The notes beneath the pieces were generated by a model. That model ran no database searches, was not told the origin of the DNA, and worked only from the letters and a program-made list of their open reading frames with translations. The position numbers and the translations under genes are program-made. Positions 29,415 to 49,324 of a DNA stretch of 64,000 bases are shown one piece after another (the first letter of the stretch is position 1; every line of letters begins with the position of its first letter). This DNA comes from an uncultured Gemmatimonadaceae bacterium (GTDB lineage Bacteria; Gemmatimonadota; Gemmatimonadetes; Gemmatimonadales; Gemmatimonadaceae), in contig CAWAGQ010000009.1 of NCBI GenBank assembly GCA_963781585.1, forward strand, positions 91,566 to 155,565, in the 5' to 3' direction.

Positions 29415-31378
29415 GCATCTGGAGCGCGGTCGCGCCGCCGCTCGCGCTCGCCTGGCTCGCGGCGTGCGTCTTCGGCGCGCCGCTCCCCGCGCAGAGCACA
29501 TCGCCGCTGGTGGAGTGGCCCACCTATGGCGGCGACGCGGGCGGGATGAAGTACTCCCCGCTCACCGACGTCAATCGCGGTAACGTCGCGCGCCTGGCGC
29601 CGGCGTGGTCGTGGGCCACCGGCGAGAACGCCATCCGCGAGACCGACTCCACGCGCGCGGCGCGGCCGGGGAATTTCCAGGCCACGCCGCTCATGATCGA
29701 CGACACGCTCTACCTGAGCACGCCGTTCAACCGCGTGGTCGCATTGGATGCCAATACCGGTCGCGAGATCTGGAGCTACGATCCGGGGGCGTACCGCGCG
29801 GGCCAGCCGTCCAATGGGACGGGGCTGGTGCATCGCGGCGTCGCCGCGTGGACCGACGGACGTGAGCGCCGGATCTTCATGAACAGCCGGTGGCGGCTCA
29901 TCGCGCTCGACGCATCAACCGGAAGACCGATCGCCTCGTTCGGCACCAACGGCGAGATCGACCTCACCGCCAGGCTGCCGCGCCCGGTCAACAAGCTCCA
30001 TTACACCAACACGTCGCCGCCGGTGATCTGGGGCGATCTCGTGATCGTCGGCAACGGCGTGGGCGACCGCCTGACCTACCGCGACGATCCGCCGGGCGAC
30101 GTCCAGGCGTTCGACGTCCACACGGGCCGGCAAGCCTGGATCTTCCACACGGTGCCGAGGCCGGGCGAGTTCGGGAATGAGACGTGGGCGGATTCATCGT
30201 GGAATTTCACCGGGCACACCAACGTCTGGGCGCCGTTCACGGTGGACAGCGCGCGGGGGCTGGTCTTTCTGCCGGTGAGCACGCCCAGCAACGACTGGTA
30301 CGGAGGCCGTCGGCTGGGGGCCGGGCTGTTCGGGGAGTCGCTGGTCTGCCTCGACGCGCGGACGGGAAAGCGCGTCTGGCATTTCCAGGTGACCCATCAC
30401 GGGCTCTGGGACTACGACCTGCCAGCGCCGCCTAACGTCATAACGATCCGGCGCGGCGCCGAGCGGGTGGACGCGGTGGTCGCGCCCACCAAGCAGGGGT
30501 TCATCTTCGTCTTCGATCGGCTCACCGGGAAGCCGCTCTGGCCGGTGGAGGAGCGCGCGGTTCCGCGGAGCGACGTGCCGGGTGAGCAGGCGTGGCCCAC
30601 GCAGCCGTTTCCCACCAGGCCGCCGCCGGTGGCGCCGCAGGGGTTCACCGACGCCGACGTGGTCGATTTCACTCCGGCCATCCGCGACTCGGCGCTGGCC
30701 CTCGTCCACCTGTATCGCATGGGACCGGTTTTCACGCCGCCGTCGCTCGAAGGGACGATCGTCGTCCCGGGGGTGATCGGCGGTGTGGGCTGGGGCGGTG
30801 CGGCCTACGACCCTGAGACCAGCACCCTATACGTGAAGGCGTCGAATTCGCCAGCGTTCATGCGGCTGGTCAAGCGCGACGCGCCGTCGGATACGGTCGA
30901 CGCTGATTACATGCTCGACCTCGCGAACTCGTCGTTGAGCCTGCGTTTTCCCGCACCGCCGGGGGAACCATCGGGAGGACGAGTGCCGCCGCTTCCGATC
31001 ATCAAGCCGCCGTATGGCACGCTGACCGCGATCGATCTTGCCACCGGCACGTTCCGCTGGCAGGTGCCGGTGGGCGATACGCCGCAGCTGCGAGATCATC
31101 CCGCCCTGCGCGGGGTGACCCTTCCCAAGGCGTTAGGCGTGTCGGGGTCACCCGGAGCGATGGTCACACGCGGCGGACTCGTCTTCGTGTCCGGCGGAGG
31201 AAACGTACTCTACGCCATCGACGCGCAGAACGGGCATAACTTGTGGGAGTACGACTTGGGACAACGGGCCTACGCCAATCCGATGACGTACCGGACGCGC
31301 GCCGGCCGGCAGTTCGTGGTCATCGCCAGCGGCGCCGGGTCGAACGCGACCCTGCGCGCGTTCGCGCTGGCGCCGTAG
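29411..31378 (+). CDS. PQQ-dependent dehydrogenase (glucose/quinate family)
   Basis: WPTYGGD..KYSPL, FQATPL, HHGLWDYD, TKQGFIFVFDR, NPMTY. Confidence 0.9.
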   Translation: MSIWSAVAPPLALAWLAACVFGAPLPAQSTSPLVEWPTYGGDAGGMKYSPLTDVNRGNVARLAPAWSWATGENAIRETDSTRAARPGNFQATPLMIDDTLYLSTPFNRVVALDANTGREIWSYDPGAYRAGQPSNGTGLVHRGVAAWTDGRERRIFMNSRWRLIALDASTGRPIASFGTNGEIDLTARLPRPVNKLHYTNTSPPVIWGDLVIVGNGVGDRLTYRDDPPGDVQAFDVHTGRQAWIFHTVPRPGEFGNETWADSSWNFTGHTNVWAPFTVDSARGLVFLPVSTPSNDWYGGRRLGAGLFGESLVCLDARTGKRVWHFQVTHHGLWDYDLPAPPNVITIRRGAERVDAVVAPTKQGFIFVFDRLTGKPLWPVEERAVPRSDVPGEQAWPTQPFPTRPPPVAPQGFTDADVVDFTPAIRDSALALVHLYRMGPVFTPPSLEGTIVVPGVIGGVGWGGAAYDPETSTLYVKASNSPAFMRLVKRDAPSDTVDADYMLDLANSSLSLRFPAPPGEPSGGRVPPLPIIKPPYGTLTAIDLATGTFRWQVPVGDTPQLRDHPALRGVTLPKALGVSGSPGAMVTRGGLVFVSGGGNVLYAIDAQNGHNLWEYDLGQRAYANPMTYRTRAGRQFVVIASGAGSNATLRAFALAP

Positions 31379-31821: not shown

Positions 31822-33186
31822 ATGCGCATTCCGGCCTCGCCGCGCGGGTCGCTCGCTGCCGCTCTGGCCGGGGCAGCGATTGTGGCCGTTTTCGTCGGGA
31901 CGCCATTGCTCGGCGCGCAAGCGCCCGCGCGGCAGACGCAGGCGGATGACTACACGCGCTACGAGCTGCTCGCGCCGGGGTCGGCCAGGTTCCGGATTCT
32001 GTATGAGGTAACGGCGACGACGCCGGGGGCCACGGCGTTCTTCAACGCCATTCGTCGTGGCAGCGTGGCGAGCGACGAGGCCGTGTACGATCGGATGACC
32101 GCCGCCAGGCTGCGGTTCGAGGTGGTGAACGGGACCGTGGCGCGCGCCGGTGGCGTGCGCGGCGCGGATTCCACGGGCGAGTACATCATGGTGCATCTCG
32201 CCCGACCGGTCCCCGACAGCGGCGAGGCGCGGCTCCTGATCGAGAAGACGTACGAGGACGCAACCAGTTACCTGGTCCGGGGCGACACGATCGTTTTCAC
32301 CCGCCCGTTAGGCATCAAGCGGAATGCGGTGGTGCTCCCGGCGGGGTACGAGCTCCTGAGCGTGAACTATCCGTCGCAGGTCCGCACCGAGCCGGACGGA
32401 AGGCTGGCGGTGAGCTTCATCAACACCAGCCCGGCGCAGGTGCCGTACACCGTTCGCGCGCGCTGTGCGAGGAGGGTGCCGGCGGGAGCGCCCTGTCCTG
32501 CGCCGGCGGCGCCTTCGGCCGGTCGCGGTGCCGGAGCCGCGGCGAGCGGCGCGTCGCCGCCAACCACCCCGGCGGCTCAACCGGGGAACGCGGCCGCGGC
32601 CACCCCGGAAACGCGGTCACGCGCATCCCGGCTTTCCGAGCGCGCGCATCAGGACCGGGAAATCGTCTACTTCCTGCAGCAGCCCGAGACCCACGCATTC
32701 GATCTCTATCACGACTACACCGAGTCGCGTCCGGGGGTGGACAAGTACATCAACGTGGTGCGGGCGGGGAGCGCGGTTTCGCGCCCGTCGGCGCGGATCC
32801 TCGATACCGGCGAGTCGCTGCCTCACGAGATCCTGCGCGGGGCGCAGATCACGGCCGCGAAGGTCGACATCGGTGAGCCGGTGACGCCGGGCAGCGAGGT
32901 GGTGGTGATCCGCTTCCCGGCGGTGAAGGCGGGTCAGTCGATCCGGCTGCGGATCAGCGAGACATATTCGGACGCGGCGCGCTACCGGCTCGAGGGCGAC
33001 GAGCTGGTGTGGGACCGGTCGTTCGGCCGTCCGGCGAACGCGATGGTGTTGCCGGCGGGGTGGTCGCTCACCAACTGCTCGATTCCGGCGACGGTGTCGA
33101 TGACCGAGGATGGGCGGGTGCGGCTCGACTTCATCAATCCGCGGAACGATGAGATTGCGGTGCTGGTGACGGCGCGGCGGCGGTGA
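31822..33186 (+). CDS. Secreted hypothetical protein with internal two-domain duplication
   Basis: Signal peptide; halves share Y.L..P....F...Y and R..G...NA.VLPAG..L, joined by a Pro/Ala linker. Confidence 0.75.
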   Translation: MRIPASPRGSLAAALAGAAIVAVFVGTPLLGAQAPARQTQADDYTRYELLAPGSARFRILYEVTATTPGATAFFNAIRRGSVASDEAVYDRMTAARLRFEVVNGTVARAGGVRGADSTGEYIMVHLARPVPDSGEARLLIEKTYEDATSYLVRGDTIVFTRPLGIKRNAVVLPAGYELLSVNYPSQVRTEPDGRLAVSFINTSPAQVPYTVRARCARRVPAGAPCPAPAAPSAGRGAGAAASGASPPTTPAAQPGNAAAATPETRSRASRLSERAHQDREIVYFLQQPETHAFDLYHDYTESRPGVDKYINVVRAGSAVSRPSARILDTGESLPHEILRGAQITAAKVDIGEPVTPGSEVVVIRFPAVKAGQSIRLRISETYSDAARYRLEGDELVWDRSFGRPANAMVLPAGWSLTNCSIPATVSMTEDGRVRLDFINPRNDEIAVLVTARRR

Positions 33187-33268
33187 GGGCCGCGGCTCAC
33201 GCTCCCGATGCGAACACCACAACACGCCATCGCTGGCGGTTGGGCGCAGGCGCGCGATGCTCCCGAAC

Positions 33269-34305
33269 TCACTGAGAGGGAAGCAGAAACCGTTCGAGAT
33301 GCTCCAGATCATCTGCGTCACGGCGCGCGACATAGACGTGGCCGGTGCCGAATCCAACGACCCGCGTGTTCGCAGGGAAGGTCACGCGCTGCACCAGTTG
33401 GCCCGAGTCGCCAATGACATCGTAGAGCGGACGCTTACCAGGCACGACGGTTCGTTTGACCCATAGTCTACCGTCCTCCGCGAACATGGCGGCCTTGTCG
33501 AGAAAGGGCGGAAGGAATGGCGGCCAGGACCGCGGCTCCCGGTACGGTGGCGTCTGGAGGGTCGCGGAAGAGCCACCATCCCGCTGGACACTCAGTGTTG
33601 GGCCGCGCTCGTTGCGCGCATCACGCCATTCCTGCTTCACTCGTTCGTCGACCTTTATCGGTAGAAACTGCATCGGACTCCCGTCATGACGCGCGCCGGT
33701 TGTCCCCACGATGTCCACCCGGTACGGTTCCGGTCGCACGATGGCTACACGACCATCGCGGCGAACGGCCCACAGCGTGGTCGCCGCAAATGGGGGCACC
33801 ACATAACCGGGAGCGGCCGCGACAATTCCTGAACCAATTACTCGACTTCCCGGTCCGAATCGGTTAGGAATGAACGCCACGGTATCGGCCTGGCAGGTCG
33901 AGGTCCAACGCTCGATGGCCGCAGAATCGGTCGCCAGTAGGCCCTCACGCTCACTCCTGGCAGTGGGCGCCGCCTCAGAATAAAGCCGACCCTTCGCGTC
34001 CGCTGCGACAAACACCGATGACCAGGTCGTCACTGCTCCGGGACAGTCGCGACCGCTGCGGTCCGGCAAGAATCCGCCCGCCGATCCCGTTAACTCACCC
34101 CGTTAGGCTGTACAGAAAAGCGGAGCCACTTCTCGAAGACACTTCCGTCTCCGAGTGCGCGGACTTGCGTGATGCGGGTGAACGATCCTTGGAACTCGGC
34201 TTCGACATGATCGACCTCGGCCGTCGGAGTCGACTGCGCCGCGACATCCTTCGTCAGCATCACCTCAAGAACGCCCAGGATCAGGGACGTGAGCATAATC
34301 CGCAT
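33269..34305 (-). pseudogene. Exported beta-propeller-like protein, split/internally deleted
   Basis: N-terminal part 34090-34305 (signal, FTRITQVRALGDG); C-terminal part with WPPFLPPF..DGRLWV..YDV..RDADDLEHLERF like the other cargo propellers. Confidence 0.6.
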
Positions 34306-34317
34306 CCGTTCTCTTTT

Positions 34318-35030
34318 TCACGTTCCTCCCTCCCCTGCTACGCGGCCACCGAACGGTGACTTGTCGGCAATAAGAGCCGTGATGACGCGAAGAACTTCGT
34401 CGCGTGATGGTGACGCACCGAACAGCCATCCATTGACAACGACCGTGGGCGTTGCATTGAGGCCCAGGCTGTCTGCCAGCGCAAGTCCTGCGTCAATTCG
34501 CGGCATTCGCGGCGGGTGATGCACGCAGTCGTTGAATGCTATGGTGTCCTTCATCCCGGCTTCTCGCGCAAACGAAGCCCATGATTTGAGACCGAGCGAA
34601 TCCTGCTTCTCAAAGACAATACCAATGAACGCGGCCAGCATCGATTGCTTGTCAGCACACTCAGCAGCCGTAGCAGCAGGCCGAGCGAACCGGTGAATCT
34701 TCAACGGAAAATGAACGAGGACGAGAGAGACATTCTGACCGAAGCCGCTCAGCACCTGGTGGGATGACCGTCTCATGGTAGTAGCGACATGGTGGGCACT
34801 CGAGATCCGTGAACTCCGCGACCTTCACCTTGGCTGCTCATTACGTACTTGAAGTCCGCTATTCACTATTGACATCCACAGTCGCGCCGGGAGTAGGCGC
34901 GGAGGAGGAATGCGAACTGTGGTGGTTTGCCCTGCGACCCTCGATCGCGACGCCGAAAGATAGGGCAAACTCACCACCGTGCCGGTCCAGGACTGACGGG
35001 ACACATGGATCCGCCCATTGTCGGGAAATG
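34318..35030 (-). pseudogene. DsbA/thioredoxin-fold protein, frameshifted
   Basis: AKVKVAEFTDLECPPCR (~34770-34830) out of frame with VHFPL...ATPTVVVNG; 5' end approximate. Confidence 0.7.
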
Positions 35031-35274
35031 ACATCGAGACTCGCCTCCGGCGTCCTGAACACGGTCTGCGAAAAGTCGACCAGGGAAAACCTGCGCGGCG
35101 GCGAGCGCCCCGAAGGCGCAACGACGGCCAGCCGGCCGAGGTAGCTGCTCGCCACGACGATGAGCTCCTGCTGCCGGGGGCAGGCGATTCTCGCGCTTAC
35201 AAAGGGTTGCGCCAGAGCCAGGTTCTAATCGACGCCTGGATCGGGGACGAGGTTCACAACGCGAGCAAATCGCT

Positions 35275-36720
35275 TCAGCAACTCAGCGAACGACGCGTGC
35301 CAACTGACCATCCACTCGCCATGCCCGCATCATAAGGCCTGCTATCAATACTTGATCGTTGTGTTGCCAGAATCTCCTTCACGACGTCACGTGCGCACTT
35401 CCAGACGAGGCCATGACCGGCATCTCTAATGATGAGCACGACGGCACGTGACAGCTCCCCCGCACTGCTAACCAGTTCGGCAGGCGTTATTGGATCCAGC
35501 TCACCGACCATAGCGATGATCGGAATGACCTTTTTCAAGGGGTGCCGAGGAGTGAAACCAACGCGAGGCCATGCACTACATGCTGCCAGCAAGTCAAGCA
35601 CGAAGGCGCGACTCCAAGACGCCGAGAGGTCTACGAGGCTCGTCTCCTTAGGCGTCGCGCGAATGTTCTCGCACAAAGTCGAAAGCACGGCGATACCGTT
35701 TTGCCTCGCCAGTTCTTCCCTTAAGTCATCGACCGCGATTTCTAGGGCTACTCTCGATCCTCCCTGCCTTGTCGATTCCAGCAGTCGCACAAATCGTGCT
35801 CGTGCCTGCGGATCGGCGAGCTGCTCCTGCAACAGCAGCGCAAGACCCCGAGCCGTGATCGTGACTACTGTGTCGCCACTCCGGCTACTCGTCCGCACAT
35901 GGACGACCATTGGTGACACCTGCAGGCGATCGAGCGCCATCTCGATTCCCTTGGAAAGAGTTTCATCGCCCAAGGTGCACGAACGGTCGACGGAACAGAG
36001 TTCTTGCATACGCATGACAGTGCGGCGCGTAGCGAAAGGCACCTGAGCAAGCCAGGGCGCAAGTGTTAGAGGCGAGTGAAGTACAAGTCCGCTGAGATGC
36101 TCCGGATATGCGGCACCATAAAGAAGCGCGGCACGCGCACCCGACGACAGGCCGTAGATAATGACGTGAGACAGACCGAGCCGCGTTCTCACGAGTTCCA
36201 GATCATCGGCCAGCGCTTGGCTTCCGTATTTCGATGCCTCGCTCGACGGACCGAGACTGTCACGACACGCTGCGACGCTTCGTGGGGCAAACCGCCGCGT
36301 TCCATCGAAATAGAGTTGACATCTCGCCCCACTCGAACGACCGGTGCCATACGAGTCGAACAGTACGAGATCGTGTCTGGCAAGGAGGTCTCCTAGCGCG
36401 GCCTCGGCAAACTCAAGTTCCTGGGTGCCGGCGAGCCCGGGGCCGCCTGGAAGAAAGACAATCGTCGGAGCATCGGGGTGTTCCTCGTCTGCTCTCCTGC
36501 GCATAACGAAAAACGAGTCAACCGCCTCCGGCCGACGTTTGGTCTCGTCGATACCATGGACGAAGAAACACTGGATGGCCGCGGCACGACCTGCCAACGA
36601 TGCAGGGCACTCTCCTGACCGCCCATCGCCGACAGGCGCGTCTAAACCCCGCATTCCTACGCTTGGGGCCAAGCTGAACAGTAGCCGAGCGATTCGGCTG
36701 ACGGCCGGACCAGACATCAT
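35275..36720 (-). CDS. Alpha/beta hydrolase, S33/TAP-like peptidase
   Basis: LPGGPG, GLSSG nucleophile elbow, GELDPITP, DAGHG triad. Confidence 0.75.
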   Translation of the reverse strand: MMSGPAVSRIARLLFSLAPSVGMRGLDAPVGDGRSGECPASLAGRAAAIQCFFVHGIDETKRRPEAVDSFFVMRRRADEEHPDAPTIVFLPGGPGLAGTQELEFAEAALGDLLARHDLVLFDSYGTGRSSGARCQLYFDGTRRFAPRSVAACRDSLGPSSEASKYGSQALADDLELVRTRLGLSHVIIYGLSSGARAALLYGAAYPEHLSGLVLHSPLTLAPWLAQVPFATRRTVMRMQELCSVDRSCTLGDETLSKGIEMALDRLQVSPMVVHVRTSSRSGDTVVTITARGLALLLQEQLADPQARARFVRLLESTRQGGSRVALEIAVDDLREELARQNGIAVLSTLCENIRATPKETSLVDLSASWSRAFVLDLLAACSAWPRVGFTPRHPLKKVIPIIAMVGELDPITPAELVSSAGELSRAVVLIIRDAGHGLVWKCARDVVKEILATQRSSIDSRPYDAGMASGWSVGTRRSLSC

Positions 36721-36812
36721 GCGGCCGGAACGAGTCCGTCGCCTGGATGGCTAGAGGTCAGCATGAGGCAGATGTCCGCCACGCGTCGGTTGCAGCCTTG
36801 GGGCCCGTGGGC

Positions 36813-37025
36813 TTACTGGTCGGCCGCTCGGCAGTTTTCATTCGTCACACACTCATTGATGCGCTCGAGACAGCAATCCACGCAGCAGTAACGTACACCT
36901 TCCACGGATATCTTGCAGCACTTGCCCCAGTTATCGTCTGCTTGTGCCACGTTGACTGAAACCAACCCGAGAATCGTAGCGGCCGCGACGTTGGCGGCAA
37001 GGACCAGAGTTCTCTGCCTCGTCAT
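36813..37025 (-). CDS. Small secreted Cys-rich peptide P1 (8 Cys)
   Basis: RBS AAGGAGG; signal peptide ending AQA; CC-x9-CC-x2-CC-x6-C-x5-C. Confidence 0.8.
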   Translation of the reverse strand: MTRQRTLVLAANVAAATILGLVSVNVAQADDNWGKCCKISVEGVRYCCVDCCLERINECVTNENCRAADQ

Positions 37026-37063
37026 CTGACTGCCTCCTTAGGTATGTCGAGTTGAGAGCGATG

Positions 37064-37288
37064 CTATTGCTCTTCGAGATTGCAGAATTCCGAAGAGGAA
37101 CATCTCGTGCCACCAGTAGAGCAGCACTGGTCGCAACAAAACTTCACGCTATCCACCGAGGTCTTGCAGCAGTCATACTTCTTCGGGCCGGTCTGCGCGT
37201 CGGCACCACTTGGCGCTTCCAGTCCAAGCATGAGGATCGTTGCGAAGGCAGCGTTGAGCATCAACAGAGCGGTACGCGTTCGTGACAT
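37064..37288 (-). CDS. Small secreted Cys-rich peptide P2 (8 Cys), same framework as P1
   Basis: RBS GAGGAGG before MSRTRT; signal ending ADA; CC-x9-CC-x2-CC-x6-C-x5-C. Confidence 0.8.
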   Translation of the reverse strand: MSRTRTALLMLNAAFATILMLGLEAPSGADAQTGPKKYDCCKTSVDSVKFCCDQCCSTGGTRCSSSEFCNLEEQ

Positions 37289-37342
37289 GAGTAGCCTCCT
37301 CTCTAATGACCGGGAATGCGGACAACTGTGCAATTCTCTTGA

Positions 37343-38551
37343 CTAGGGAACTGCGCTGCTACGTGTAACAAAAGCGGGCCATCGTGCGCCATCCTCGCTT
37401 TGCATGATGCCGATCAGCTCTGTCTCGGTGATCTCGATCGGCCTGAAGCCGCGTGGAATTCGGAGGTCTCGCTCCACGCTGTGTATGTCCAGAAGGGTCC
37501 ACGTGCGGCCGAAGCCGAGCGCATCGTCGCGAAGGCTGAAGTGCTCGAGCCACAAATCACCACGCCGACTGCATAACAACCTTACAAACCGTGGTTTCTC
37601 CAGGGGAAAATCACCTCGTTGTCGACCTAATATCTCCCGCCCTCGCTTGCGGGCTCCGACGGTGTCTCCTCTCGAGTCGCGCGCCTCATTCACAAGGAGC
37701 TCGCCGAGAAAGATTTCCAGCTCGTCGTCACTGAACAAGCCAGGGAGTGAATCGACACGCGGTATGGCTATCCGGTCGATCGTGTCTCCGCTCAGTCGCA
37801 GCTTGTACAGCATCGTGCCTAGTCCATCATAGACAGCCACTGAAGAGTCGGGGCAGACGTCCCAGAGAGGTAACGGCACTAGAGACGTGGCATCCTGGAG
37901 TACCCGTTGCCGGCCGCTGATGTCCCGAAAGCTTACTATCGTATCGCGCCAACCGGACGAGATATCGGCGACCATCAGTATGGGCCGAAGCAGATCGGCA
38001 TTCGTGCCCACGTTGCCGGGATGTTCTGCGAAGACCACCACCGACCCAATGAGCTTGGCGAGAAATGGATCGCCGAAACCTGTAGATTCCACGTCGGATC
38101 GCACATATCCCCTGACAACCGAGAGGGCGGCAACCGTTCTCGCTGTGCCAAAGGTGTCCACCGCGAGAACTTGCTTTCGCGCAACATCCCAGACGAAGGG
38201 CGGGCCGTCTCCGAGGGCACCACCAAGAAATCGCCAAGGTTTGAAGAAGTCGGTCGGCCCACGTCCATGCCGGCCGTTCTGGAACAACAAGTGCCCTGTG
38301 GAGTCGTATCGCTTGAGGTACGGCTCTGCATCGGCCAGTACCCACCATCCTCCGTCCGCGGAACGACGAATGTCGCGAGTGTCGAATGCACTTGAATCAA
38401 CTATGATGGCCCGAGCCGGCCCTAGCTCCTGAACTGTCAGGGCCAGCTCCTTCTGTCCAGTGCATGCAAGGAAGCATGACAACGTTAGGAGCATACGAGG
38501 ATCGGCACGGTTCTCCCGCATGGGCCCAGTACCGGTGTGAGGGCGCTTCAT
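37343..38551 (-). CDS. Exported beta-propeller-like (NHL/6-bladed) putative lipoprotein
   Basis: FLAC lipobox-like; GRHGRGPTDF; FPLEKPRF..GDLWLE. Confidence 0.65.
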   Translation of the reverse strand: MKRPHTGTGPMRENRADPRMLLTLSCFLACTGQKELALTVQELGPARAIIVDSSAFDTRDIRRSADGGWWVLADAEPYLKRYDSTGHLLFQNGRHGRGPTDFFKPWRFLGGALGDGPPFVWDVARKQVLAVDTFGTARTVAALSVVRGYVRSDVESTGFGDPFLAKLIGSVVVFAEHPGNVGTNADLLRPILMVADISSGWRDTIVSFRDISGRQRVLQDATSLVPLPLWDVCPDSSVAVYDGLGTMLYKLRLSGDTIDRIAIPRVDSLPGLFSDDELEIFLGELLVNEARDSRGDTVGARKRGREILGRQRGDFPLEKPRFVRLLCSRRGDLWLEHFSLRDDALGFGRTWTLLDIHSVERDLRIPRGFRPIEITETELIGIMQSEDGARWPAFVTRSSAVP

Positions 38552-39129
38552 CGCGCTGCCCGCAAGGTGCTGTCAACTGCTTCCAATCGCGATCCGTGAT
38601 CCATCAGCACGAGTTGTCCGCTGGGATTCACGAGATAGAGCCACGGCGTTCTCCCCGTCAGTGCGCGTTCCGCTGACTTCGGCGCGAAGTGCTGCACGGA
38701 TAGCAAGTCGGTTCGCCAGCCATGGGTGTCCCTAAACACCGATGCTTGCGCAGGAGCGTCTCGTGTCATTGCAATCGTCTGCAGACCTTCCTTGGGCGTC
38801 TGCAGCCACTGACTCCACTTCGGTGCCACTGCTTCGCAGTGTGCGCACGTCGACGAAAAGGCCAAGACGAGCGTCCACTTCGGAGAGTCCTGTAGACGCA
38901 CCGTATCGGGCCGCCCAATGCTGTCTTGGCCAACCAACGTCGCAATGGTGTCACCGATGATGAATGACCTAGGGCGCTCCACACCGGGATCCCGCCTCAC
39001 ATGATTTGAATAGACCGTCACGATTGCGATCATCTGGAGCGCGAGAAGGCCCCACAGGAGGCAGTTTGCTCTCCGCACCGGCAGGCTCCTTGGGCTTGAC
39101 CCGGGTATCTCAAGTGATCCCTGCATCAC
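38548..39129 (-). CDS. Membrane-anchored TlpA/peroxiredoxin-like thioredoxin-fold protein
   Basis: FSSTCAHC CxxC; RTPWLYLVNPSG; N-terminal TM segment. Confidence 0.75.
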   Translation of the reverse strand: MMQGSLEIPGSSPRSLPVRRANCLLWGLLALQMIAIVTVYSNHVRRDPGVERPRSFIIGDTIATLVGQDSIGRPDTVRLQDSPKWTLVLAFSSTCAHCEAVAPKWSQWLQTPKEGLQTIAMTRDAPAQASVFRDTHGWRTDLLSVQHFAPKSAERALTGRTPWLYLVNPSGQLVLMDHGSRLEAVDSTLRAAR

Positions 39130-39411
39130 GCTTCGCGATTCATCTTTCTTCTAATCGCCTAGTCTGGGGTGTCCAATGGGCCAGGGATCAGACCTGACAG
39201 CGCTGATGCAGCGTAGCCCGTCCCACGTCATTGATCGATGTCAGTGATGCCGTATGTCATTTCACGTGGACTATTCGCCTGTGGGTCAGACCTGCAACCT
39301 GTAGGATCAGATCAACTGGCGTGGTGATGTCCTTCGTTGGTCCCTATCAGGAATTCCCTGAATTACCAAGGACTACTCTTCCGGTTTGTCTGGCCTGGTG
39401 TGGACGCGCCG

Positions 39412-39458
39412 ATGGTAGGCTTCCCTCGATGCGCTGTCAATGAAATGTCCCACCGCGT
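39412..39458 (-). promoter_or_regulatory. Conserved cassette promoter/operator, copy A
   Basis: 23-bp invariant element running into TTGACA-17-TACCAT. Confidence 0.75.
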
Positions 39459-39593
39459 GACAACGGAGTCCGTCCGAACGCCGTGGGATCGCCGCGACGG
39501 GTGCGGCATCCGCACGAGGCGCAGGAGCAGCCCGTGAGGGAAGTCAGCCAGTCGGCAGTTCGCTCATGCTACACGCCACGCCTGTGGCGCTCA

Positions 39594-40407
39594 TCACTCG
39601 CGCCGCACCCACCACTCGATCGCCCTCCGGAGGCCGGCGTCGCCGCGCAACTCGCCGAACGAGACCCCGGCATGGCGATGCACGAAGTTCTGCAGCGCCG
39701 GTTCGCTCGAGAAAGCCGAGATCCCGGGCCACCTCGACCGCCGTGACCGAGCTGCGGGCACACGCGGCCCCGACATGAAGAAACCGCCCAGCATCGATCA
39801 CCTGGTGCGCATCCCGCCACCCGCGGCGCTGCACCTCCCGCAGCACCGTCCGGCGATTGACCGCAAACTGACCGGCCAGGCTTGCGGACCAAGGTTGTTG
39901 CGTGCGGGGCGGGCTCACGGCGAGCGGACGGTAGGCATTCCGTGCGCACCACGATTCCTCCGCACAGCCACGCGACCAGTGCGCGTATCGCAGCAGACCG
40001 GCGAGACTGGCGGGCAGGACGTGCCGGAGCCGCTGCATGACCTGATTGCGCAACTCAGCCTCTCCCGTCGCGGCCAGCCACAAGTCATCGATGGACGCGC
40101 CCGCGAGTTCGGTGATGCGGCCCGTGGACAGATCCTCACGCCCAATGCACAGGACCACGTGCGCGAGCGGGTACCGGTACCGGAAGGCGATCAGGTCGTC
40201 GCCGGACAGTCGGCCCCCGTCCGTGTGTGTCCCGACCAGCACCACCATACGTTCACCCACGAGCGTCGGGAACCCGGGCACTTCGTCCAGCCCGTGCACA
40301 ACGGCCACGGCCGCGGGCACACCGCGCAACGCTCGGCACACCTGTTGTCGGAGCAGCGGATCGCCGACGGCCACGCAGACGCGGGCAGGACGCGGATCGT
40401 GCCACAC
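39594..40407 (-). pseudogene. Receiver-like + AraC-type HTH regulator, copy 1 (frameshift near 39710)
   Basis: LAGQFAVNRRTVLRE..RFLH..VARDLGF / SEPALQNFVHRHAG; one extra base versus copy 2. Confidence 0.7.
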
Positions 40408-40414
40408 GCGCGCC

Positions 40415-40507
40415 TCACGAGCACCGTGGCTCTGTCGTGCCCCCCCCCACCCCACGCCGCGTCCCTCTCTGCTCCGAATCGTGCGCGAACGAACTGGTGT
40501 CCAACAT
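40415..40507 (-). other. Putative uORF/leader peptide (30 aa) before the AraC regulator
   Basis: GGAGG RBS; MLDTSSFAHDSEQ...; homologous uORFs at 48577-48672 and 53198-53278. Confidence 0.4.
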
Positions 40508-40531
40508 GCCTGCCTCCCACTGCGTCGCGCC

Positions 40532-40597
40532 CGGAGCTGGCGTGCGGCTCACTCGGCTGCGCTGGTTCCAAGATGTGGGTTCGGGCCCGCCGCGCAA
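40532..40597 (-). promoter_or_regulatory. Conserved promoter 2 + leader, copy 1
   Basis: TTGCGC-16-CATCTT followed by a conserved ~40-nt leader; three copies. Confidence 0.55.
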
Positions 40598-40920
40598 GCC
40601 ACCGCGTCGTCACATCCCTCACCGACCTGGACGGTGAAAGCCGCTGCGTCTGACCCGGCGTTCGCACCGTGCCCGGCCGCCGCAGTCTGCACATCCGGCG
40701 ATCGCCGAGTCACCGAGGTCGGGATCGAACGTCACCGCGGTTGCGATCGAACGTCACGATGACCCCGCGATTGCCCGAAGCTTGTTCCCCGCCGACTGCG
40801 GCAGGTGACCAGCGACGGAGTTGGAGCGCTGTCCGTTAGGCTTCGTCGTCGCGCCGTGCAACAGCAAGTTTTCCACGCTTTTTCAGCAGCCTGCTAGACG
40901 GCTCCGCATTCAGCCCCCTG

Positions 40921-41235
40921 GTGTCCCGCCGGCTACCGTCTGCACTGCCGCCCACACATCCCGGCGAGATGCTGCTCGAGGAATTTCTCAACCCTCTCGG
41001 CGTGTCGCAGTCAGCGTTCGCCATCCGACTCGGCGTTTCTTTCCCGCGACTCAACGAAGTCATCCGGGGCAAACGCAGCGTCACGCCCGACACGGCACTG
41101 CGCCTGGCCCGCGTGACGGGGATGAGTGCCGACTTCTGGCTTGGTCTGCAGCAGGACTGGGATCTCTGGCATGCGCTTCGCTCCAAGCGGGCGGCCGCCA
41201 TCGCGCGACTCGAGCCCCTGCCACGCTCGGGCTGA
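40921..41235 (+). CDS. higA: HigA antitoxin (orphan; higB lost)
   Basis: PTHPGEMLLEEFL..RSVTPDTALRLAR..FWLGLQ; near-identical to 49325-49651. Confidence 0.9.
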   Translation: MSRRLPSALPPTHPGEMLLEEFLNPLGVSQSAFAIRLGVSFPRLNEVIRGKRSVTPDTALRLARVTGMSADFWLGLQQDWDLWHALRSKRAAAIARLEPLPRSG

Positions 41236-41411
41236 CCACGATTGCACCGCGGCCCCAGGCAGGGCACCGTCATTTCGCAAGGCCGGAAGTCAGCCAGAAG
41301 GACCAGATGAGATTCTGATGGCGCTCCCACGTATCCGCGAAGACGCCGCCGCAGACTCACAGGCGGGACTTGCCGGGAGAATCGTGAGGCGCCCACACCG
41401 GGCCCCACGCA

Positions 41412-41802
41412 CTACAGCGGTTTTCGCGGGACGAGCACGCTTGCCGAGCTATCGGCGGGATGGCTCCCCCGCTGCCAGTCCCAGTCCAGGCCGGGTTTGA
41501 GCACGACGTACACCGCGTTGTTCGTCCCCAGGCCGGGCATCGACGTGTCCCAGCAGTTCACATACCGGATCTCCGCGATATCCCCGGCCCGGATCGACGC
41601 GAGAACGGAATCCACCAGATCGGGCTCCGGCGTGGGCTTCCGCGCGCGGCGGACGACGTGGACCGGGCCCCCCTGGGCCGCGCCAGCGAACTTGGCCATC
41701 CAAAGCACCCGCCGACCGTTGACCCAGACATTGTCGACCGCCTGCCCGGGACACCGTCCCTTGTCGCCGAGCATGTCGGGTCGGAGCTTGCGAAGCGCGT
41801 CG
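41412..41802 (-). pseudogene. 5'-truncated copy of the short carboxypeptidase-regulatory-like protein
   Basis: Matches the C-terminal ~130 codons of 49835-50743 and 59311-60234; homology stops near 41802. Confidence 0.8.
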
Positions 41803-41894
41803 CGCAGGAACAGAGCAGCGGCGTTGCCGCGTCGAGTACCCCGGCGCCGCGTTGACTGACGGTCATGACCGGACCTGCCCGACCCTCTACCGGC

Positions 41895-42350
41895 TCAGCG
41901 CCCACTGCCCACCGTGTCCCGCCTGACGTCCTGCATCCAATCGGCGCGGACGGGCGACTTCGTCGAGTCGCGACGAAAGCGGATGGCGATGGCCCATGGA
42001 CCTGGGGTGATGAACCGCATGTTCGCGTAGTAGCTGCCCAGCTCGGCGCCGGGCACGAGGGTGTCGGAATACGACGCCAGATCGAGACCGGTCGCGAACA
42101 GCGCGCCGCTACCACCTTCGATCGGCTCACCCGTCCTGGCGTCGCGGACAATGACCTTGTACCGCACCACATCCCGCACGTGCGGCGGCAGCGGCTCGGC
42201 CAGTACCCGAATCGAGAGATCGTCGGCGAACAGGATCGTGGAGTAGTCCGGTGACTCGGGAGCGCAGCACAGGGCGACCACTGCCAGAGGGAACACCAGC
42301 TGCGCGGCCAGGGAATTTGCCGGGGAGCGCCTGCGAGGGAGCCGCTTCAT
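41895..42350 (-). CDS. Hypothetical exported protein, possibly YtkA/FixH-like Ig fold
   Basis: Start MKRLP overlaps the upstream stop; YKVIVRD.RTGEPIE, G.YYA..RF..PGPWAIAI. Confidence 0.55.
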   Translation of the reverse strand: MKRLPRRRSPANSLAAQLVFPLAVVALCCAPESPDYSTILFADDLSIRVLAEPLPPHVRDVVRYKVIVRDARTGEPIEGGSGALFATGLDLASYSDTLVPGAELGSYYANMRFITPGPWAIAIRFRRDSTKSPVRADWMQDVRRDTVGSGR

Positions 42351-43486
42351 GGTGTCCACTTCCAGGCGTAGACCACCAGCTCCAGCCCTATTCCGCTTCT
42401 CGTCGCAACCAGAAGCGAGGCATGACGTGCGGCTGCGCGGACTTCGATCGATGACCCGGGTTGCGTCATGCTCATGAACCGCCCGAGAGTGTCGTATACC
42501 ACCAGCAGCCGGCGCTCCGATGCGGGATCCACAAGGGTCTGCGCCACGGCCCGGTCGAGAGCGACCGCGGGAAGTGCGTCCCAGGACCGAAACGTCTCGG
42601 CATACGCCTGGGTGCCGAAGGACAGCGCTCCCGTGGCGTGAGCGCGGCGGGCTCCGGCGCTGTCCAATCGCATCCAGCCAAAGGGCCACTGTGCGGAACT
42701 GAGAAGGATGCCACCGCGTCCGCGCGCGAGGACCAGGTGTGAAACGTTGTACGCCCTGTCGAAAAGGGCATCGAACGTCACCGCGAGCACTGGACGGCCG
42801 CCAAAGCGAAGCCGTTCAAGCTGCACGGGCTGGTCTCGAGAGGCGAGGAGGATCGTCCAGGAACCATCCGATTGGGCAGCACCGGCAATGCGGCGTCCTT
42901 CGTGCCGCATGTGCTGCGCGACACAAGATCCGTCGTCTCGGATGTGGAAGAGTGCCTGACGAGTGCTGTCCACGATCTCGACCAGGGAGGTACCGGGAAC
43001 GAACGAGGCGGCGGCAACGCCCTCCAGGCGGCCCTGGCAGAGTGCGCGGCCTGGATGCGTCCCTGCGCGCACGAGGTAGACTGCGGAGAGCGTCCAGTAG
43101 AGCAGCCCGGTATCCTCCGAAACGTCAGCGCCGGCGATCACCCGGTGCTCAATGGGCACCGTGAGGAGCTCGTTGAGCTCCAGCTCCTGATGCCGCGGGA
43201 CAACAGGCCGATAGGTGGGACCTTCACACCCTGTAATGACAGCGGCTGCCAAGGAGAGCACGATCGCCACTCGATAAGACTGACTGGGCGTCACCTTCGC
43301 AGTGCGCGACCACCGCGTGGGGCGGTGTTGCTCCTGGCCTGATAAGGGAGTACTGCTGCACAGATCATGGTTGGGGTCCTGCCTCTGCGCCTGGCAGTGA
43401 ATCACCGGTTCTCCATTCGGGACCAGACTACCCATGCCAAGCACGCAGCCGGGACGCAATTGAGGAATCGATCCGATCCACATCAC
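42347..43486 (-). CDS. Hypothetical lipoprotein, possibly a divergent beta-propeller
   Basis: VITGC lipobox (likely start GTG 43294); short beta-strand repeats such as LVVYDTLGRF. Confidence 0.5.
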   Translation of the reverse strand: MMWIGSIPQLRPGCVLGMGSLVPNGEPVIHCQAQRQDPNHDLCSSTPLSGQEQHRPTRWSRTAKVTPSQSYRVAIVLSLAAAVITGCEGPTYRPVVPRHQELELNELLTVPIEHRVIAGADVSEDTGLLYWTLSAVYLVRAGTHPGRALCQGRLEGVAAASFVPGTSLVEIVDSTRQALFHIRDDGSCVAQHMRHEGRRIAGAAQSDGSWTILLASRDQPVQLERLRFGGRPVLAVTFDALFDRAYNVSHLVLARGRGGILLSSAQWPFGWMRLDSAGARRAHATGALSFGTQAYAETFRSWDALPAVALDRAVAQTLVDPASERRLLVVYDTLGRFMSMTQPGSSIEVRAAARHASLLVATRSGIGLELVVYAWKWTP

Positions 43487-43597
43487 GTGTCCCAGCCTCC
43501 GGCAAATTGAGGGGCGAACGAGTCTGCTCGACCTTGGCTCGAGGAGAACACGAGCGCATCCGTCGAAAGGGCGTCTCCGGTAGGCGGGACCCCTATG

Positions 43598-44671
43598 CTA
43601 TGACCTGCCGACACGTGGGTAGACGCGAAACATCGCGATATGGTGTCGTCGGCGAACGTCTCTGTACGAGACAAGGACAAAATGATCGCTGACCTGTAGC
43701 AGCCTGACTCCCGCACCCAAGAAGGTGACATCGCCAAGCACCGTGCCAGCACTATCAACCAGGCGATAGACGGCCTTCTCCGCGAAGAAGGGCGAGACCC
43801 ACAGCCACAGGGTCCCGCTGGGTGTGGACTTGAGCGCATTGTACGGCGGCATGAACTTCGGTTTCGGAAAGCTCTCTAGGTAGTCCCTCTGCCGCGTCTT
43901 CCCCTTGACGCTGCCGAGCAGCAGGTTGATCGCGTCTGCGTACGCTTTGTCGCTAACTGGCCGCCCGGGGATGCCGGCCGGGATAGCGCCCTTCTTTTGG
44001 CCGTTCAAGGAATACACGTCCACAAAGGCAGACTCGCCGGTTCCCACGTAGAGCCCTTGGTCAAATACACCGAAAGTCGTTACCGTCCCGAGAGCACGGC
44101 GCTCGCCGAGCAGAAGACTGTCGAGCGATGCGATCCTGTCGCCGTTCCAGTCGAGGAGCATCAAAGTTGCGTATGTGCGGGCTTCGAGGCCGCCAAGTTG
44201 GAGAGACGGATTGTCCAGCCGACCTCTGATTACGGCCAAGAATCCTCTCGGGGAGCACGCCACGCCAATCGACCTCGCTGGGACACGGAACTCGCGGACG
44301 GCGAGTCCAGCGGAGTCAAAAACCGTGATCCGGGATAGACCCGGGTCCCATGCGAATAAGGAATCCGCATGACAAACTCCAACCCAGGTAAGTCGACGAA
44401 ACTCACCGAGTTCACTTCCCCCCTTCCCCACATGGTGAACCACGTTGCCCAAGGAGTCGTAGAAACTAAGGGACAGGGTCCGACTATCTGCAAAGACCAG
44501 CGCATTGCCGACGCGAGTGGCGTGACCTGCATCGACCGGCCCAATGTCCACTACAGCCAGCGAATCAATCGAGGGTCCTTTCGCCTCTAGCTTGAGACGC
44601 TCGGGGACTTCTCCGGAGCAGCTCGCCGAAACGATGAGAGGCCCCAACCAAAGCCACTGACGCAGAATCAT
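43598..44671 (-). CDS. Beta-propeller-like lipoprotein
   Basis: VSASC lipobox; VGKGGSELGEFRRL; RITVFDSAG; MPPY...GTLWL. Confidence 0.7.
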   Translation of the reverse strand: MILRQWLWLGPLIVSASCSGEVPERLKLEAKGPSIDSLAVVDIGPVDAGHATRVGNALVFADSRTLSLSFYDSLGNVVHHVGKGGSELGEFRRLTWVGVCHADSLFAWDPGLSRITVFDSAGLAVREFRVPARSIGVACSPRGFLAVIRGRLDNPSLQLGGLEARTYATLMLLDWNGDRIASLDSLLLGERRALGTVTTFGVFDQGLYVGTGESAFVDVYSLNGQKKGAIPAGIPGRPVSDKAYADAINLLLGSVKGKTRQRDYLESFPKPKFMPPYNALKSTPSGTLWLWVSPFFAEKAVYRLVDSAGTVLGDVTFLGAGVRLLQVSDHFVLVSYRDVRRRHHIAMFRVYPRVGRS

Positions 44672-45336
44672 TCACGGCTCCGCAGTCTGTTGGCACGAGC
44701 GGAATCCACTTTGCGTGCCACGATCTCTGCCAGGTCCGGCGGAAGTCCCGGATAAAGGTCACCATTTATCAGGATCGTGGGCGCTGAAGATGTTCCAAGC
44801 GCCTCTGCAGCAGCGACATCAGCCCGGAGCTCTCGGCTCGTTTCCTCATCTCCGAGGCACTCCGCAAAAGCGTTGGTGTCCGACACGCCGGCTGCCTGCG
44901 CCATGGTGGACCACGACACTCTGCCCAGATCAGCTGAGTGACCAAACAGAGCGCGACGCACCGCTTCAAACTTACCTGCGCGCCGTCCGCAAATCGCAGC
45001 CATCGCCGCGCCCACTGCGCCCGGCTTTAGAGGCAGATTACGCCTGACGACGACTAAATCCTTCCCGTACTTCGCAATCAAAGAATCGAGGCGCCCGTCC
45101 AGCAGCGCGCAAGCACCGCAGAGGTAATCAGAAAACACAACAATCGTAACCGATGCGCTCGACGCCCCGTCGCGGACGCCTTCACTTGCGTACGCACTCC
45201 AGTCGGCAACACGGCGCCAAGGTTCGATGCTAGTGCGCCCATCCTTGGTGCGACTCTGCCACACAGAGCGCGCACTCCAACCGACAGCTGCGGCGACCAC
45301 TGCTGCAGTAACGGCGTTACCGAGGCGATGATGCAT
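44668..45336 (-). CDS. DsbA/thioredoxin-fold protein
   Basis: VTIVVFSDYLCGAC; RNLPL; SAPTILING; N-terminal TM segment. Confidence 0.82.
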   Translation of the reverse strand: MHHRLGNAVTAAVVAAAVGWSARSVWQSRTKDGRTSIEPWRRVADWSAYASEGVRDGASSASVTIVVFSDYLCGACALLDGRLDSLIAKYGKDLVVVRRNLPLKPGAVGAAMAAICGRRAGKFEAVRRALFGHSADLGRVSWSTMAQAAGVSDTNAFAECLGDEETSRELRADVAAAEALGTSSAPTILINGDLYPGLPPDLAEIVARKVDSARANRLRSRE

Positions 45337-45401
45337 CACACACCACTCTCCGAACGATGCCGCCGACTCTGTGACGACAGGTGCACCGCGGGGGCTTTCA
45401 G

Positions 45402-45641
45402 CTATCGCTGAGGGGCAAGGCAGGTACCGTCCAGGTCCGCGCCACCGATCACGCACCATGGATTAGGGTAGCATTCGCAATTGCCACCTGTACACGAGAC
45501 GTCCTCACTACACGAACAAACCTCCATGCTGCAGCTGTATACCTTGGCTGGCGGTGGTTTGTAGGCAGCGAAGCCGGCAGTTGCCCCGATTACCAACGGC
45601 GCGACCGCCCACAGTATCTTCGTTCCTGCCGCAGTTCGCAC
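45402..45641 (-). CDS. Small secreted Cys-rich peptide P3 (8 Cys)
   Basis: RBS GGAGGGAG before GTG; hydrophobic leader; C-x4-CxC-x5-C-x4-CxC-xPNPW-C-x10-C. Confidence 0.78.
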   Translation of the reverse strand: MRTAAGTKILWAVAPLVIGATAGFAAYKPPPAKVYSCSMEVCSCSEDVSCTGGNCECYPNPWCVIGGADLDGTCLAPQR

Positions 45642-45688
45642 GTTTCTCCCTCCGAGAGTCATGAAGAATCACCGCCCTCAATGGGACA

Positions 45689-46810: not shown

Positions 46811-47045
46811 CGCGATCTCAGCCTCGATGAAGGTGCATGCGTGCTAGCCGTCGCTCATTGGCCACCACAAGACGCCGCAATAACTAGCCCGTTCCACCCA
46901 GCACACACCGCCTTCGCCGTGCGTTGCGGGATCCCGTCATGGTCACAACGTTGATGGGCGATGCCCCTATGGGGACATTCCCAGCTCGTCCGCCCTTTGC
47001 AACGCTACCTCGAGCGAAAAGTGCTTGGGACCCGCTGACTGTTCC

Positions 47046-47270
47046 TCACTGCACAGGAGCGCAGTTCCCGGCAAGATCATGAGTCAGATAGCACCATGGA
47101 TTGGGCATACAAGCGCAGCTGCCGCCGCTGCACTGGTTGTTTTCATCGCAGATGCACCCGACATCACAGCTGAACAATGCGGCGCGTGCCGGACTGAAGA
47201 TCGCGTACGCTGCATTGAGCGCAACTATCGTCAGGGCTACACCCAAGATTCGGGTTCGACGGCTTTTCAT
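47046..47270 (-). CDS. Small secreted Cys-rich peptide P4 (8 Cys), same family as P3
   Basis: RBS GGAGG; signal ending ARA; C-x3-CxC-x5-C-x4-CxC-xPNPW-C-x9-C. Confidence 0.8.
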   Translation of the reverse strand: MKSRRTRILGVALTIVALNAAYAIFSPARAALFSCDVGCICDENNQCSGGSCACMPNPWCYLTHDLAGNCAPVQ

Positions 47271-47579
47271 TGGGACCTCCATCTCAACAAGCCAAAGGAA
47301 TTGCTGCCTCTCTCGTTCTGTCGTGCTGCTCTCCCTTCCCCTATTAACAGAATGCGTGCGTTACTTCATCGCCCCGCTCCGCAGCTGCCGCCAACGCAAC
47401 CTCCCTATCCCGTTGCGATGAGCCGCGGAGCGTCTGACTCGCGCGGTCCGCACTCTTCCGTCCACGGAGGATCTCGGCGACGCTCGCCTCCCGGAAAGGC
47501 TGTACCGACACCTGTACTTGGTCACTCACGTGCTGCTTCAGTGTCGTCCGTGCCGGACTCCTTCAGCAGCTGTGCGACG

Positions 47580-47626
47580 ATGGTATGCGCCCCCGGATGA
47601 ACTGTCAATGAAATGTCCCACCGCGT
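47580..47626 (-). promoter_or_regulatory. Conserved cassette promoter/operator, copy B
   Basis: 23-bp invariant element running into TTGACA-17-TACCAT. Confidence 0.75.
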
Positions 47627-48569: not shown

Positions 48570-48576
48570 GGGCGCT

Positions 48577-49013: not shown

Positions 49014-49020
49014 ACGCGTC

Positions 49021-49314: not shown

Positions 49315-49324
49315 ACGACTCCGC

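Follow-up and report, generated by a model that had tools for sequence, protein, structure and literature searches.

How would a bacterium make small proteins in which eight of some forty residues are cysteine, and what would it do with so many thiols? The question is raised by a locus in an uncultured Gemmatimonadaceae bacterium (GenBank assembly GCA_963781585.1, contig CAWAGQ010000009.1, positions 91,566 to 155,565 of the forward strand), a stretch of 64,000 nucleotides (nt) that is called the window throughout and whose own numbering is used for all coordinates. Here, two short open reading frames (ORFs) lie in tandem on the minus strand and encode the precursors of two cysteine-rich peptides, P1 and P2. 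As set out below, the two peptides belong to a family of their own, and their genes sit beside genes for a thioredoxin-like protein and a beta-propeller lipoprotein, an arrangement that has been kept in other genomes and that suggests a private disulfide-folding system.

Two paralogous precursors in tandem

The two ORFs and the parts of their products are as follows:

36813..37025, minus strand: P1, a precursor of 70 amino acids (aa) with an ATG start; residues 1-29 are signal-like and include Asn12, AQA occupies positions -3 to -1 and is followed by DD, and the mature part has 41 aa with 8 Cys
37064..37288, minus strand: P2, a precursor of 74 aa from its ATG and a paralog of P1; residues 1-31 are signal-like and include Asn12, ADA is followed by QT, and the mature part has 43 aa with 8 Cys and begins with Gln

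The P1 string, CCKISVEGVRYCCVDCCLERINECVTNENC, and the P2 string, CCKTSVDSVKFCCDQCCSTGGTRCSSSEFC, were each confirmed exactly, and both contain the same framework of eight cysteines, CC-x9-CC-x2-CC-x6-C-x5-C. A preliminary description of the locus had claimed tandem peptides with an identical triple-CC framework, strong ribosome-binding sites and AxA signal sites, and all of these are borne out: the framework is exact in both ORFs, AAGGAGG stands 7 nt 5′ of the P1 ATG and GAGGAGG 6 nt 5′ of the P2 ATG, and AQA and ADA are present where a signal peptidase would be expected to act. That the window encodes two eight-cysteine, signal-bearing paralogous peptides is confirmed.

P2 lies upstream of P1, with 38 nt between the two genes, and its reading frame could also begin earlier, at a TTG at 37333. 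Aligned from end to end, the precursors show 41% identity, and the similarity takes in the N-terminal region, where both have the pattern M.R.RT..L..N.A.ATIL.L. When a degenerate DNA pattern for CC[KQE]x7[FY]CCx2CC was run over the window it matched twice, exactly at P1 and P2, and it found 0 matches in each of 100 shuffled sequences.

A family found mainly in Gemmatimonadota

An exhaustive HMMER search of 1.84 billion representative proteins with a P1+P2 profile (E<=1e-3) gave 52 matches, 50 of which are proteins of 65-90 aa with the same build as P1 and P2. The two long matches, P0004 and P0048, are unrelated repeat proteins and were excluded. A word-indexed protein search with P1 returned only P1 itself. 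The members carry the public label 'hypothetical protein [Gemmatimonadota bacterium]', with a precomputed Pfam domain on none of the 16 proteins listed, and the look-alikes of P2 in the ESM Atlas (score <=0.81) are likewise all 'hypothetical protein'. No credible Pfam or NCBIfam match was found for any of the 50 members, the best being single-member matches at E 0.001-0.1; the family profile found nothing below E 2.3 among PDB sequences; and literature searches found no description of the peptide family or its module.

The preliminary description had left room for the peptides to belong to a described family, or for the ORFs to show no evidence of translation. Neither proved to be the case. 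No described family was found in Pfam, NCBIfam, PDB sequences or PDB folds, and the ratio of nonsynonymous to synonymous substitution rates (dN/dS) was 0.06-0.46 in all 10 informative ortholog pairs, so the peptide genes are real and under purifying selection. Two more pairs gave no dN/dS value, the L071 copies being identical and the P1-P2 comparison being saturated.

The distribution of the family was taken from a scan with the degenerate DNA pattern over one genome per species, which gave at least 121 loci (designated L below); locus counts from here on are among the matches listed, and the range of the family is a lower bound. A family hidden Markov model recognized true members in at least 26 locus identifiers, corresponding to 25 distinct regions, and the remaining 95 of the 121 loci hold chance or unrelated matches with no family ORF. 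Among the matches listed, 21 of the 25 regions bear a Gemmatimonadota label, mostly Longimicrobiales. The other four comprise one region labelled Chromatiales, two from a single Bryobacterales metagenome-assembled genome (MAG) and one labelled Bacillota, all of them on short or MAG contigs. The family is undescribed and, among these matches, largely specific to Gemmatimonadota, and its members may be regarded, on their sequences, as eight-cysteine peptides that are probably exported. Duplicate copies of its genes occur in five genomes (the window, L016, L071, L017/L065 and L031/L074).

Two further observations were made on the scanned loci. The peptide and thioredoxin genes of L010 (labelled Chromatiales) and of L029 and L118 (labelled Bryobacterales) are nearly identical to those in Gemmatimonadota records (L031, L049), which points to mis-binning or recent transfer. 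In addition, about 35 Prochlorococcus/Synechococcaceae loci (among L002-L116) match the degenerate DNA pattern without containing a family ORF, and these matches presumably fall in a conserved unrelated gene.

Precursor anatomy and the cysteine scaffold

The anatomy of the precursors was counted in an alignment of the 50 members. The median length of the N-terminal region is 30 residues, and 49 of the 50 members carry Lys or Arg among the first 10; position -1 is Ala in 46, and position -3 is A, L, S, V, I, G or T in all 50. By rule of thumb, a substrate for the Sec pathway and signal peptidase I has small residues at -3 and -1, preceded by a basic n-region and a hydrophobic h-region, and the family shows these features. 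The first mature residue is Gln in half of the members (25/50), which would allow the formation of pyroglutamate at the mature N-terminus. The mature part itself has a median length of 43.5 residues and is net acidic in 45 members, neutral in 1 and net basic in 4; 32 of the 50 mature peptides contain no His and 37 no Met.

With 50 members in hand, the earlier picture of a fixed scaffold with variable loops can be made more exact. Variation is confined to the loops after the third CC pair, which differ in length (3-9) as well as in sequence, and to this extent the picture stands, but the first loop follows a motif that is itself conserved, K-x-[ST]-[TV]-E-G-x-[KR]-[FY]. Similarly, the spacing that had been called exactly conserved is so between P1 and P2, and CC-x9-CC-x2-CC is kept in 43 of the 50 members, but the x6/x5 tail belongs to a minority (10/50), x5/x5 being the commonest (21/50). 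Phe or Tyr precedes the second CC pair in 40 of 43 members, and the third is most often followed by Trp. The comparison with defensins that had been drawn for the two peptides is not upheld, as 45 of the 50 mature peptides are net acidic.

The number of cysteines in the mature part is 8 in 45 members, 6 in two, 10 in two and 9 in one, and is hence even in 49 of the 50. Both members with six (P0019 and P0039) lack the second Cys of pair 2 and the first Cys of pair 3, leaving FCxxxxC; because these two cysteines are lost together in both cases, they are probably partners. Both members with ten (P0034 and P0045) have one extra Cys two residues after the first pair and another in the C-terminal tail. 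This parity, and the gain and loss of cysteines in pairs, points to disulfides. An AlphaFold2 model of P1 built from the 50-row alignment has a signal helix, a beta-hairpin (34-39/45-52) on which the first two CC pairs sit, and a short C-terminal helix (62-67).

A thioredoxin-like protein and a propeller lipoprotein encoded alongside

Next to the peptide genes are two genes that had gone unseen in the preliminary description:

38548..39129, minus strand: a 193-aa protein of probable thioredoxin fold with the motif CAHC and an N-terminal membrane anchor containing Gln
37343..38551, minus strand: a 402-aa lipoprotein with the lipobox FLAC and the fold of a six-bladed NHL-type beta-propeller

Along the minus strand of the window, the thioredoxin-like gene comes first and its stop overlaps the start of the propeller gene by 4 nt; P2 follows 54 nt after the propeller gene, and P1 38 nt after P2. 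In L034, L038 and L074, it is the propeller and peptide genes that overlap by 4 nt. Linkage was counted over 17 loci, namely the window and 16 others with usable flanks. A thioredoxin homolog adjoins the peptide gene in 14 of the 16 other loci (15/17 with the window), and a homolog of this specific propeller does so in 11 (12/17 with the window). The order of the module varies, as trx-propeller-peptide, peptide-trx-propeller or trx-peptide, and the genes are always adjacent. The three-gene linkage of peptide, thioredoxin and propeller is therefore a conserved one. Radical-SAM, YcaO, lanthipeptide and MNIO enzymes were looked for in 18 proteins of the window and in 102 neighbouring proteins from 12-13 other loci, and none was found.

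The thioredoxin homologs were compared in a 14-row alignment. Their single N-terminal membrane helix contains Gln in all 14, and the first active-site Cys is likewise kept in all 14. A second active-site Cys is present in eight, as CAHC, CGHC, CEHC, CVHC, CAYC or CGFC; in the other six, among them those of L010, L031, L034, L038 and L071, this resolving Cys is replaced by Ser (CAHS or CGFS). Even close relatives can differ exactly at this position, as L034:9354-9938 (CGFS) and L066:6528-7112 (CGFC) do. The nearest solved sequences are PDI-type domains (PDI/TXNDC5), although these matches are weak (E 1e-4 to 1e-2). A His before the second active-site Cys is typical of the oxidising and isomerising enzymes DsbA and PDI, and CxxS forms keep isomerase or mixed-disulfide chemistry and lose oxidase activity. 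Judged by these motifs, the thioredoxin-like protein would be a disulfide isomerase or holder and not a reductant.

The propeller fold of the 402-aa protein was recognized by both structure and profile. Its AlphaFold2 model (pLDDT 74.9, pTM 0.77) is a beta-propeller with a two-helix insert at ~275-314, and a Foldseek search with it found the six-bladed NHL domains of Thin, Brat and TRIM2/3 as well as Drp35, with E down to 3e-10, and also the Bacteroides function-unknown proteins 3s9j and 4raa. The sequence profile matches the NHL repeats of TRIM2/3/71 at E 4e-18 to 2.5e-9. Further propeller genes in the window, those matching DUF5128, are its distant relatives; a word-indexed protein search with the 402-aa protein returned only the query. 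All 11 aligned propeller homologs have, besides the lipobox, two further invariant cysteines, Cys233 (PLWDxCPDG) and Cys327. When a complex was predicted for residues 38-402 of the propeller (with an 11-row alignment) and mature P1 (with the 50-row one), the score was 0.02 against a mark of 0.32, a result that speaks neither for nor against binding.

A possible folding pathway and competing explanations

The explanation preferred here, to which about an even chance is given, is that P1 and P2 are miniproteins exported by Sec, each with four disulfides, which the thioredoxin-propeller pair folds or holds. The precursors would be exported by Sec, and signal peptidase I would probably cut after A-x-A to leave acidic miniproteins of ~41-43 residues. 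The eight cysteines would then form four disulfides, the oxidative folding being performed or assisted by the two proteins encoded with the peptides, often under translational coupling. One would be the membrane-anchored thioredoxin-like protein; the other, the propeller lipoprotein, would most likely be the platform on which the peptide binds, or else a stable partner of it.

Several points weigh against this explanation. The signal call rests on rule-of-thumb features, and a near-invariant Asn amid the hydrophobic signal core (48/50) is atypical of a plain Sec signal. The AlphaFold2 model of P1 is of moderate confidence (mean pLDDT 79.1, pTM 0.43), and a Foldseek comparison of the peptide model with the PDB gave no significant match (best E 5.8). 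For the thioredoxin-like protein, the Pfam scores lie below the curated cut-offs (AhpC-TSA 20.2 vs 26, E 5.8e-4; Thioredoxin 17.3 vs 23.5), and so does the best NCBIfam match, to a TrbB-type isomerase (E 1.6e-6, 27.9 vs a cut-off of 132). The specific propeller is absent from 5 of the 17 loci (L009, L010, L031, L027 and L043), among which L043 is cut at a contig end and L010 is a 4-kb contig. Finally, we infer export, cleavage, disulfide formation, the protein contacts and the redox direction, the last of these by a textbook argument from CxHC.

A bolder form of the same idea would see in the module a split bacterial version of the machine in which thioredoxin (Trx) and NHL domains are fused in NHLRC2 and SOQ1, with its client encoded alongside. 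Buried polar residues, the Asn of the signal and the Gln of the anchor helix, occur in proteins that are encoded side by side, and an intramembrane contact is suggested for this reason. The client would be captured during export through such a contact, pairing the signal Asn (48/50) with the invariant anchor-helix Gln (14/14), and would then be knotted on the propeller surface by one-cysteine chemistry, so that the four-disulfide knot would need only one active-site cysteine. As a joint claim, all of this together is distinctly unlikely.

Other explanations give the peptide or its partners a different role. Conceivably, though this is unlikely, the peptide could be a disulfide-locked small subunit or tight ligand of the propeller, the pair making up an enzyme, a receptor or a toxin-immunity unit, and the thioredoxin would then serve only in maturation. 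The 4-nt overlaps of propeller and peptide genes in L034, L038 and L074, the co-occurrence of the specific propeller in 12 of the 17 loci and the two invariant non-lipobox cysteines of the propeller would all suit such a pairing, and there is a parallel in methylamine dehydrogenase (MADH), where MauD is described as necessary for the six disulfides (10.64898/2026.03.05.709764). Yet five of the 17 loci have the peptide and thioredoxin without the specific propeller, the propeller has six NHL blades with no MADH heavy, light or MauD model matching, and in the window as well as in L016 two peptide genes accompany a single propeller. The eight cysteines within ~30 residues, CC and CCxxCC among them, might instead bind copper, zinc or cadmium in the periplasm in the manner of a metallothionein, with the thioredoxin-like protein keeping the thiols reduced. 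Membrane-anchored TlpA-type thioredoxins do reduce the thiols of copper proteins, and the AhpC-TSA/TlpA-like Pfam match (E 5.8e-4, below cut-off) could be read in this light. Metal binding had been offered as an alternative in the preliminary description, and it is now disfavoured and quite improbable: cysteines are even in number in 49 of the 50 members and come and go in pairs, conserved aromatics flank them, His (absent from 32/50) and Met (absent from 37/50) are scarce, the thioredoxin motif is CxHC or CxxS and not CxPC, and the scanned neighbours include no gene for a metal transporter or chaperone.

A role as precursor of a ribosomally synthesized peptide with post-translational modifications (RiPP) is similarly improbable. 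The N-terminal region would then be a leader, and the cysteines would be modified to thioether, thiooxazole or the like by an unrecognised enzyme, perhaps the propeller. The conservation of the N-terminal region with its Asn (48/50), the similar N-terminus of a different Cys-rich core at 47046..47282 and the tandem, multicopy peptide genes could be taken in its favour, but that region fits a Sec signal with a signal peptidase I site and no known maturase family occurs in the 18 window and 102 neighbour proteins. A match of one member to the target of a Cxxx-repeat radical-SAM enzyme (TIGR04117, 1/50, E 0.0011) was treated as noise. Equally doubtful is a secreted, bacteriocin-like antagonist for which the propeller lipoprotein would provide self-immunity, much as LanI-type lipoproteins do. 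Such peptides can indeed be accompanied by dedicated thiol-disulfide enzymes, as sublancin is by BdbA/B, and the low GC content of the stretch (0.59 vs 0.68), the integrases or IS1595 transposase in L016, L017 and L029, the duplicates within genomes and the hypervariable C-terminal loops would accord with an antagonist. The net acidity of 45 of the 50 members would not, and there is no conserved exporter dedicated to the peptide, since ABC and OEP genes are confined to the L017/L029 group. This last proposal concerns the end function of the peptide and is compatible with the chemistry of the preferred explanation.

Comparison with known systems

MauB, the heavy subunit of MADH, is a beta-propeller, and the peptides described here are about one third of the size of MauA. 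In MADH maturation, as is proposed here, a small exported subunit packed with disulfides is encoded together with a beta-propeller and a thioredoxin-like protein of its own. The module differs in that no Pfam or NCBIfam profile of MauA, MauB or MauD matches any of its three proteins, its propeller is a lipoprotein with six NHL blades, and mauE, mauG, amicyanin and a conserved Trp pair for the tryptophan tryptophylquinone cofactor are lacking. MauD is reported to be required for six disulfides in MADH (10.64898/2026.03.05.709764).

The second system to be compared is NHLRC2/SOQ1, for which two sources place the active-site motif at the Trx-NHL cleft, a proposed client-binding site (PMC6107167; 10.1101/2021.03.16.435614). 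The first of these reports no conserved neighbouring genes for the bacterial NHLRC2 homologs (PMC6107167). The likeness consists in a thioredoxin-like module combined with a six-bladed NHL propeller on the non-cytoplasmic side of a membrane, SOQ1 being anchored by a helix. There, however, Trx and NHL are fused, whereas here they are separate ORFs with a 4-nt overlap; the motif is CC(I/V)NC there and CAHC-like or CxxS here; and the present module, unlike NHLRC2, has a linked candidate client. PDB sequence searches with the thioredoxin and propeller profiles found no NHLRC2 chain at E<=1. By analogy, the module may work in the manner of MauD and the small subunit of MADH, and also in that of the proteins in which Trx and NHL are fused; it is a member of neither group.

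Among small cysteine-rich proteins, granulin/epithelin resembles the peptides in carrying vicinal CC pairs on a beta-hairpin, which in the peptides is a predicted one. The best fold match is the N-terminal stacked-hairpin domain of carp granulin-1 (1qgm), but it is non-significant (Foldseek E 5.8, probability 0.12) and serves as a lead only; membership in the granulin family (PF00396) was rejected, with 0 of 50 members matching at E<=0.1. Animal miniproteins such as conotoxins and spider toxins share the plan of a signal peptide followed by a short Cys scaffold with variable loops. From both granulin and these miniproteins the present peptides differ in their spacing, and they are bacterial, acidic and provided with dedicated helper genes. 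A defensin-like cationic peptide was rejected as a candidate as well, with a net positive charge in just 4 of the 50.

Bufferins and the radical-SAM RiPPs of the SCIFF and Cxxx-repeat kinds are likewise made from small bacterial Cys-rich precursors. Bufferins carry Sec signals and are defined by an adjacent MNIO (DUF692) enzyme and a DUF2063 partner, neither of which occurs among the 120 proteins scanned, and a bufferin/MNIO RiPP was rejected. A radical-SAM Cys-rich RiPP was rejected too, as there is no radical-SAM gene among the 120 and no credible match to a model of those families. A metallothionein-like binder was set aside in view of the conserved aromatics (40/43), the even Cys number (49/50) and the lack of a Pfam match.

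Significance

Disulfide-rich miniproteins built on a fixed scaffold are a hallmark of animal venoms and of the defence peptides of plants and animals; to our knowledge, few bacterial ones come with folding machinery of their own. Gemmatimonadota have few cultured members, and an unnamed peptide family from such a phylum may offer a new stable scaffold. The module would also supply a genetically linked client for a pair of Trx and NHL-propeller proteins, whereas the clients of NHLRC2 and SOQ1 are still debated. It might further be a case of a signal peptide that carries a recognition residue for a private oxidoreductase. Should the unlikely reading of a split Trx-NHL machine prove true, the choice of a private folding catalyst could be written into a signal peptide, and the action of Trx-NHL proteins on their clients would have a tractable model in the module.

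Genomic surroundings of the module

Two other genes lie downstream of P1:

35275..36720, minus strand: a 481-aa alpha/beta hydrolase (TAP-like, peptidase S33 type), 92 nt downstream of P1
34318..34776, minus strand: a 152-aa DsbA-like protein (Thioredoxin_4), further downstream

Both were considered as parts of the module and rejected, the hydrolase because no homolog of it occurs beside the peptides in other loci and the DsbA-like gene because it is not conserved with the module. Some 6 kb off is a full-length PQQ-dependent dehydrogenase propeller (29411-31378, plus strand; PF01011, E 1e-202), for which no link to the module was found. An Rfam scan of 33000-50000 found nothing.

The module lies in a stretch of low GC content (34000-40000; 0.59-0.62 vs ~0.68 in the flanks). 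In other genomes, integrases stand beside it in L016 and L017, and an IS1595 transposase in L029. Taken together, the integrases, the transposase and the low GC content suggest accessory, mobile-prone DNA.

Several kinds of genes recur near the module in other loci. One encodes a polytopic membrane protein of ~400 aa with 5-8 hydrophobic segments (8-TM) and no Pfam family, which occurs in eight loci, often with an extracytoplasmic function (ECF) sigma factor, and is absent from the window. Its copies are at the following positions:

L009:7216-8409, L010:331-1536, L027:10149-11309, L031:4388-5593: polytopic membrane protein
L037:7496-8806, L038:8738-9946, L066:14457-16181, L074:2473-3663: polytopic membrane protein, further copies

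Regulators are also common. An ECF sigma factor is found near the module in six loci and a PAS histidine kinase in four, with a LuxR-type regulator beside it in L017; AraC-type regulators occur in L009, in L038 and in a repeated element of the window. ABC and OEP genes lie near the module solely in the L017/L029 group.

The repeated element of the window is a direct repeat of ~2.2 kb (39406-41577 and 47574-50000) with 80-98% identity and a spacing of ~8.2-8.4 kb. Its copies end just upstream of each Cys-peptide cassette, and it encodes an AraC-type helix-turn-helix (HTH) protein (47755-48243) and an XRE-type HTH protein (40921-41235); the copy at 39544-40455 may be frame-disrupted. Within the end of the element lies one further feature:

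39412..39440, minus strand: a weak promoter-like site, TTGACA-17-TACCAT, upstream of the thioredoxin gene

The promoter-like pattern was found at 1 site, against a mean of 1.0 in shuffled sequence.

The window also holds a second, different family of small signal-bearing ORFs with eight cysteines, at 45402-45662 and 47046-47282, both on the minus strand. Their framework is C-x3/4-C-x-C-x5/6-C-x4-C-x-C-x5-C-x11-C, with 'NPWC' in common, and their neighbours at 45689-46810, 44668-45459 and 43598-44671 comprise two genes for DUF5128-like six-bladed propellers and one for a DsbA-like protein, a setting that parallels the module of P1 and P2. The N-terminus of the ORF at 47046, with 'LNAAYA', resembles that of P2, with 'LNAAFA'. 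A fifth signal-bearing ORF with eight cysteines, of 93 aa (58091-58372, minus strand), has another spacing and no Pfam match, and it adjoins genes for CarboxypepD_reg/Plug-domain proteins.

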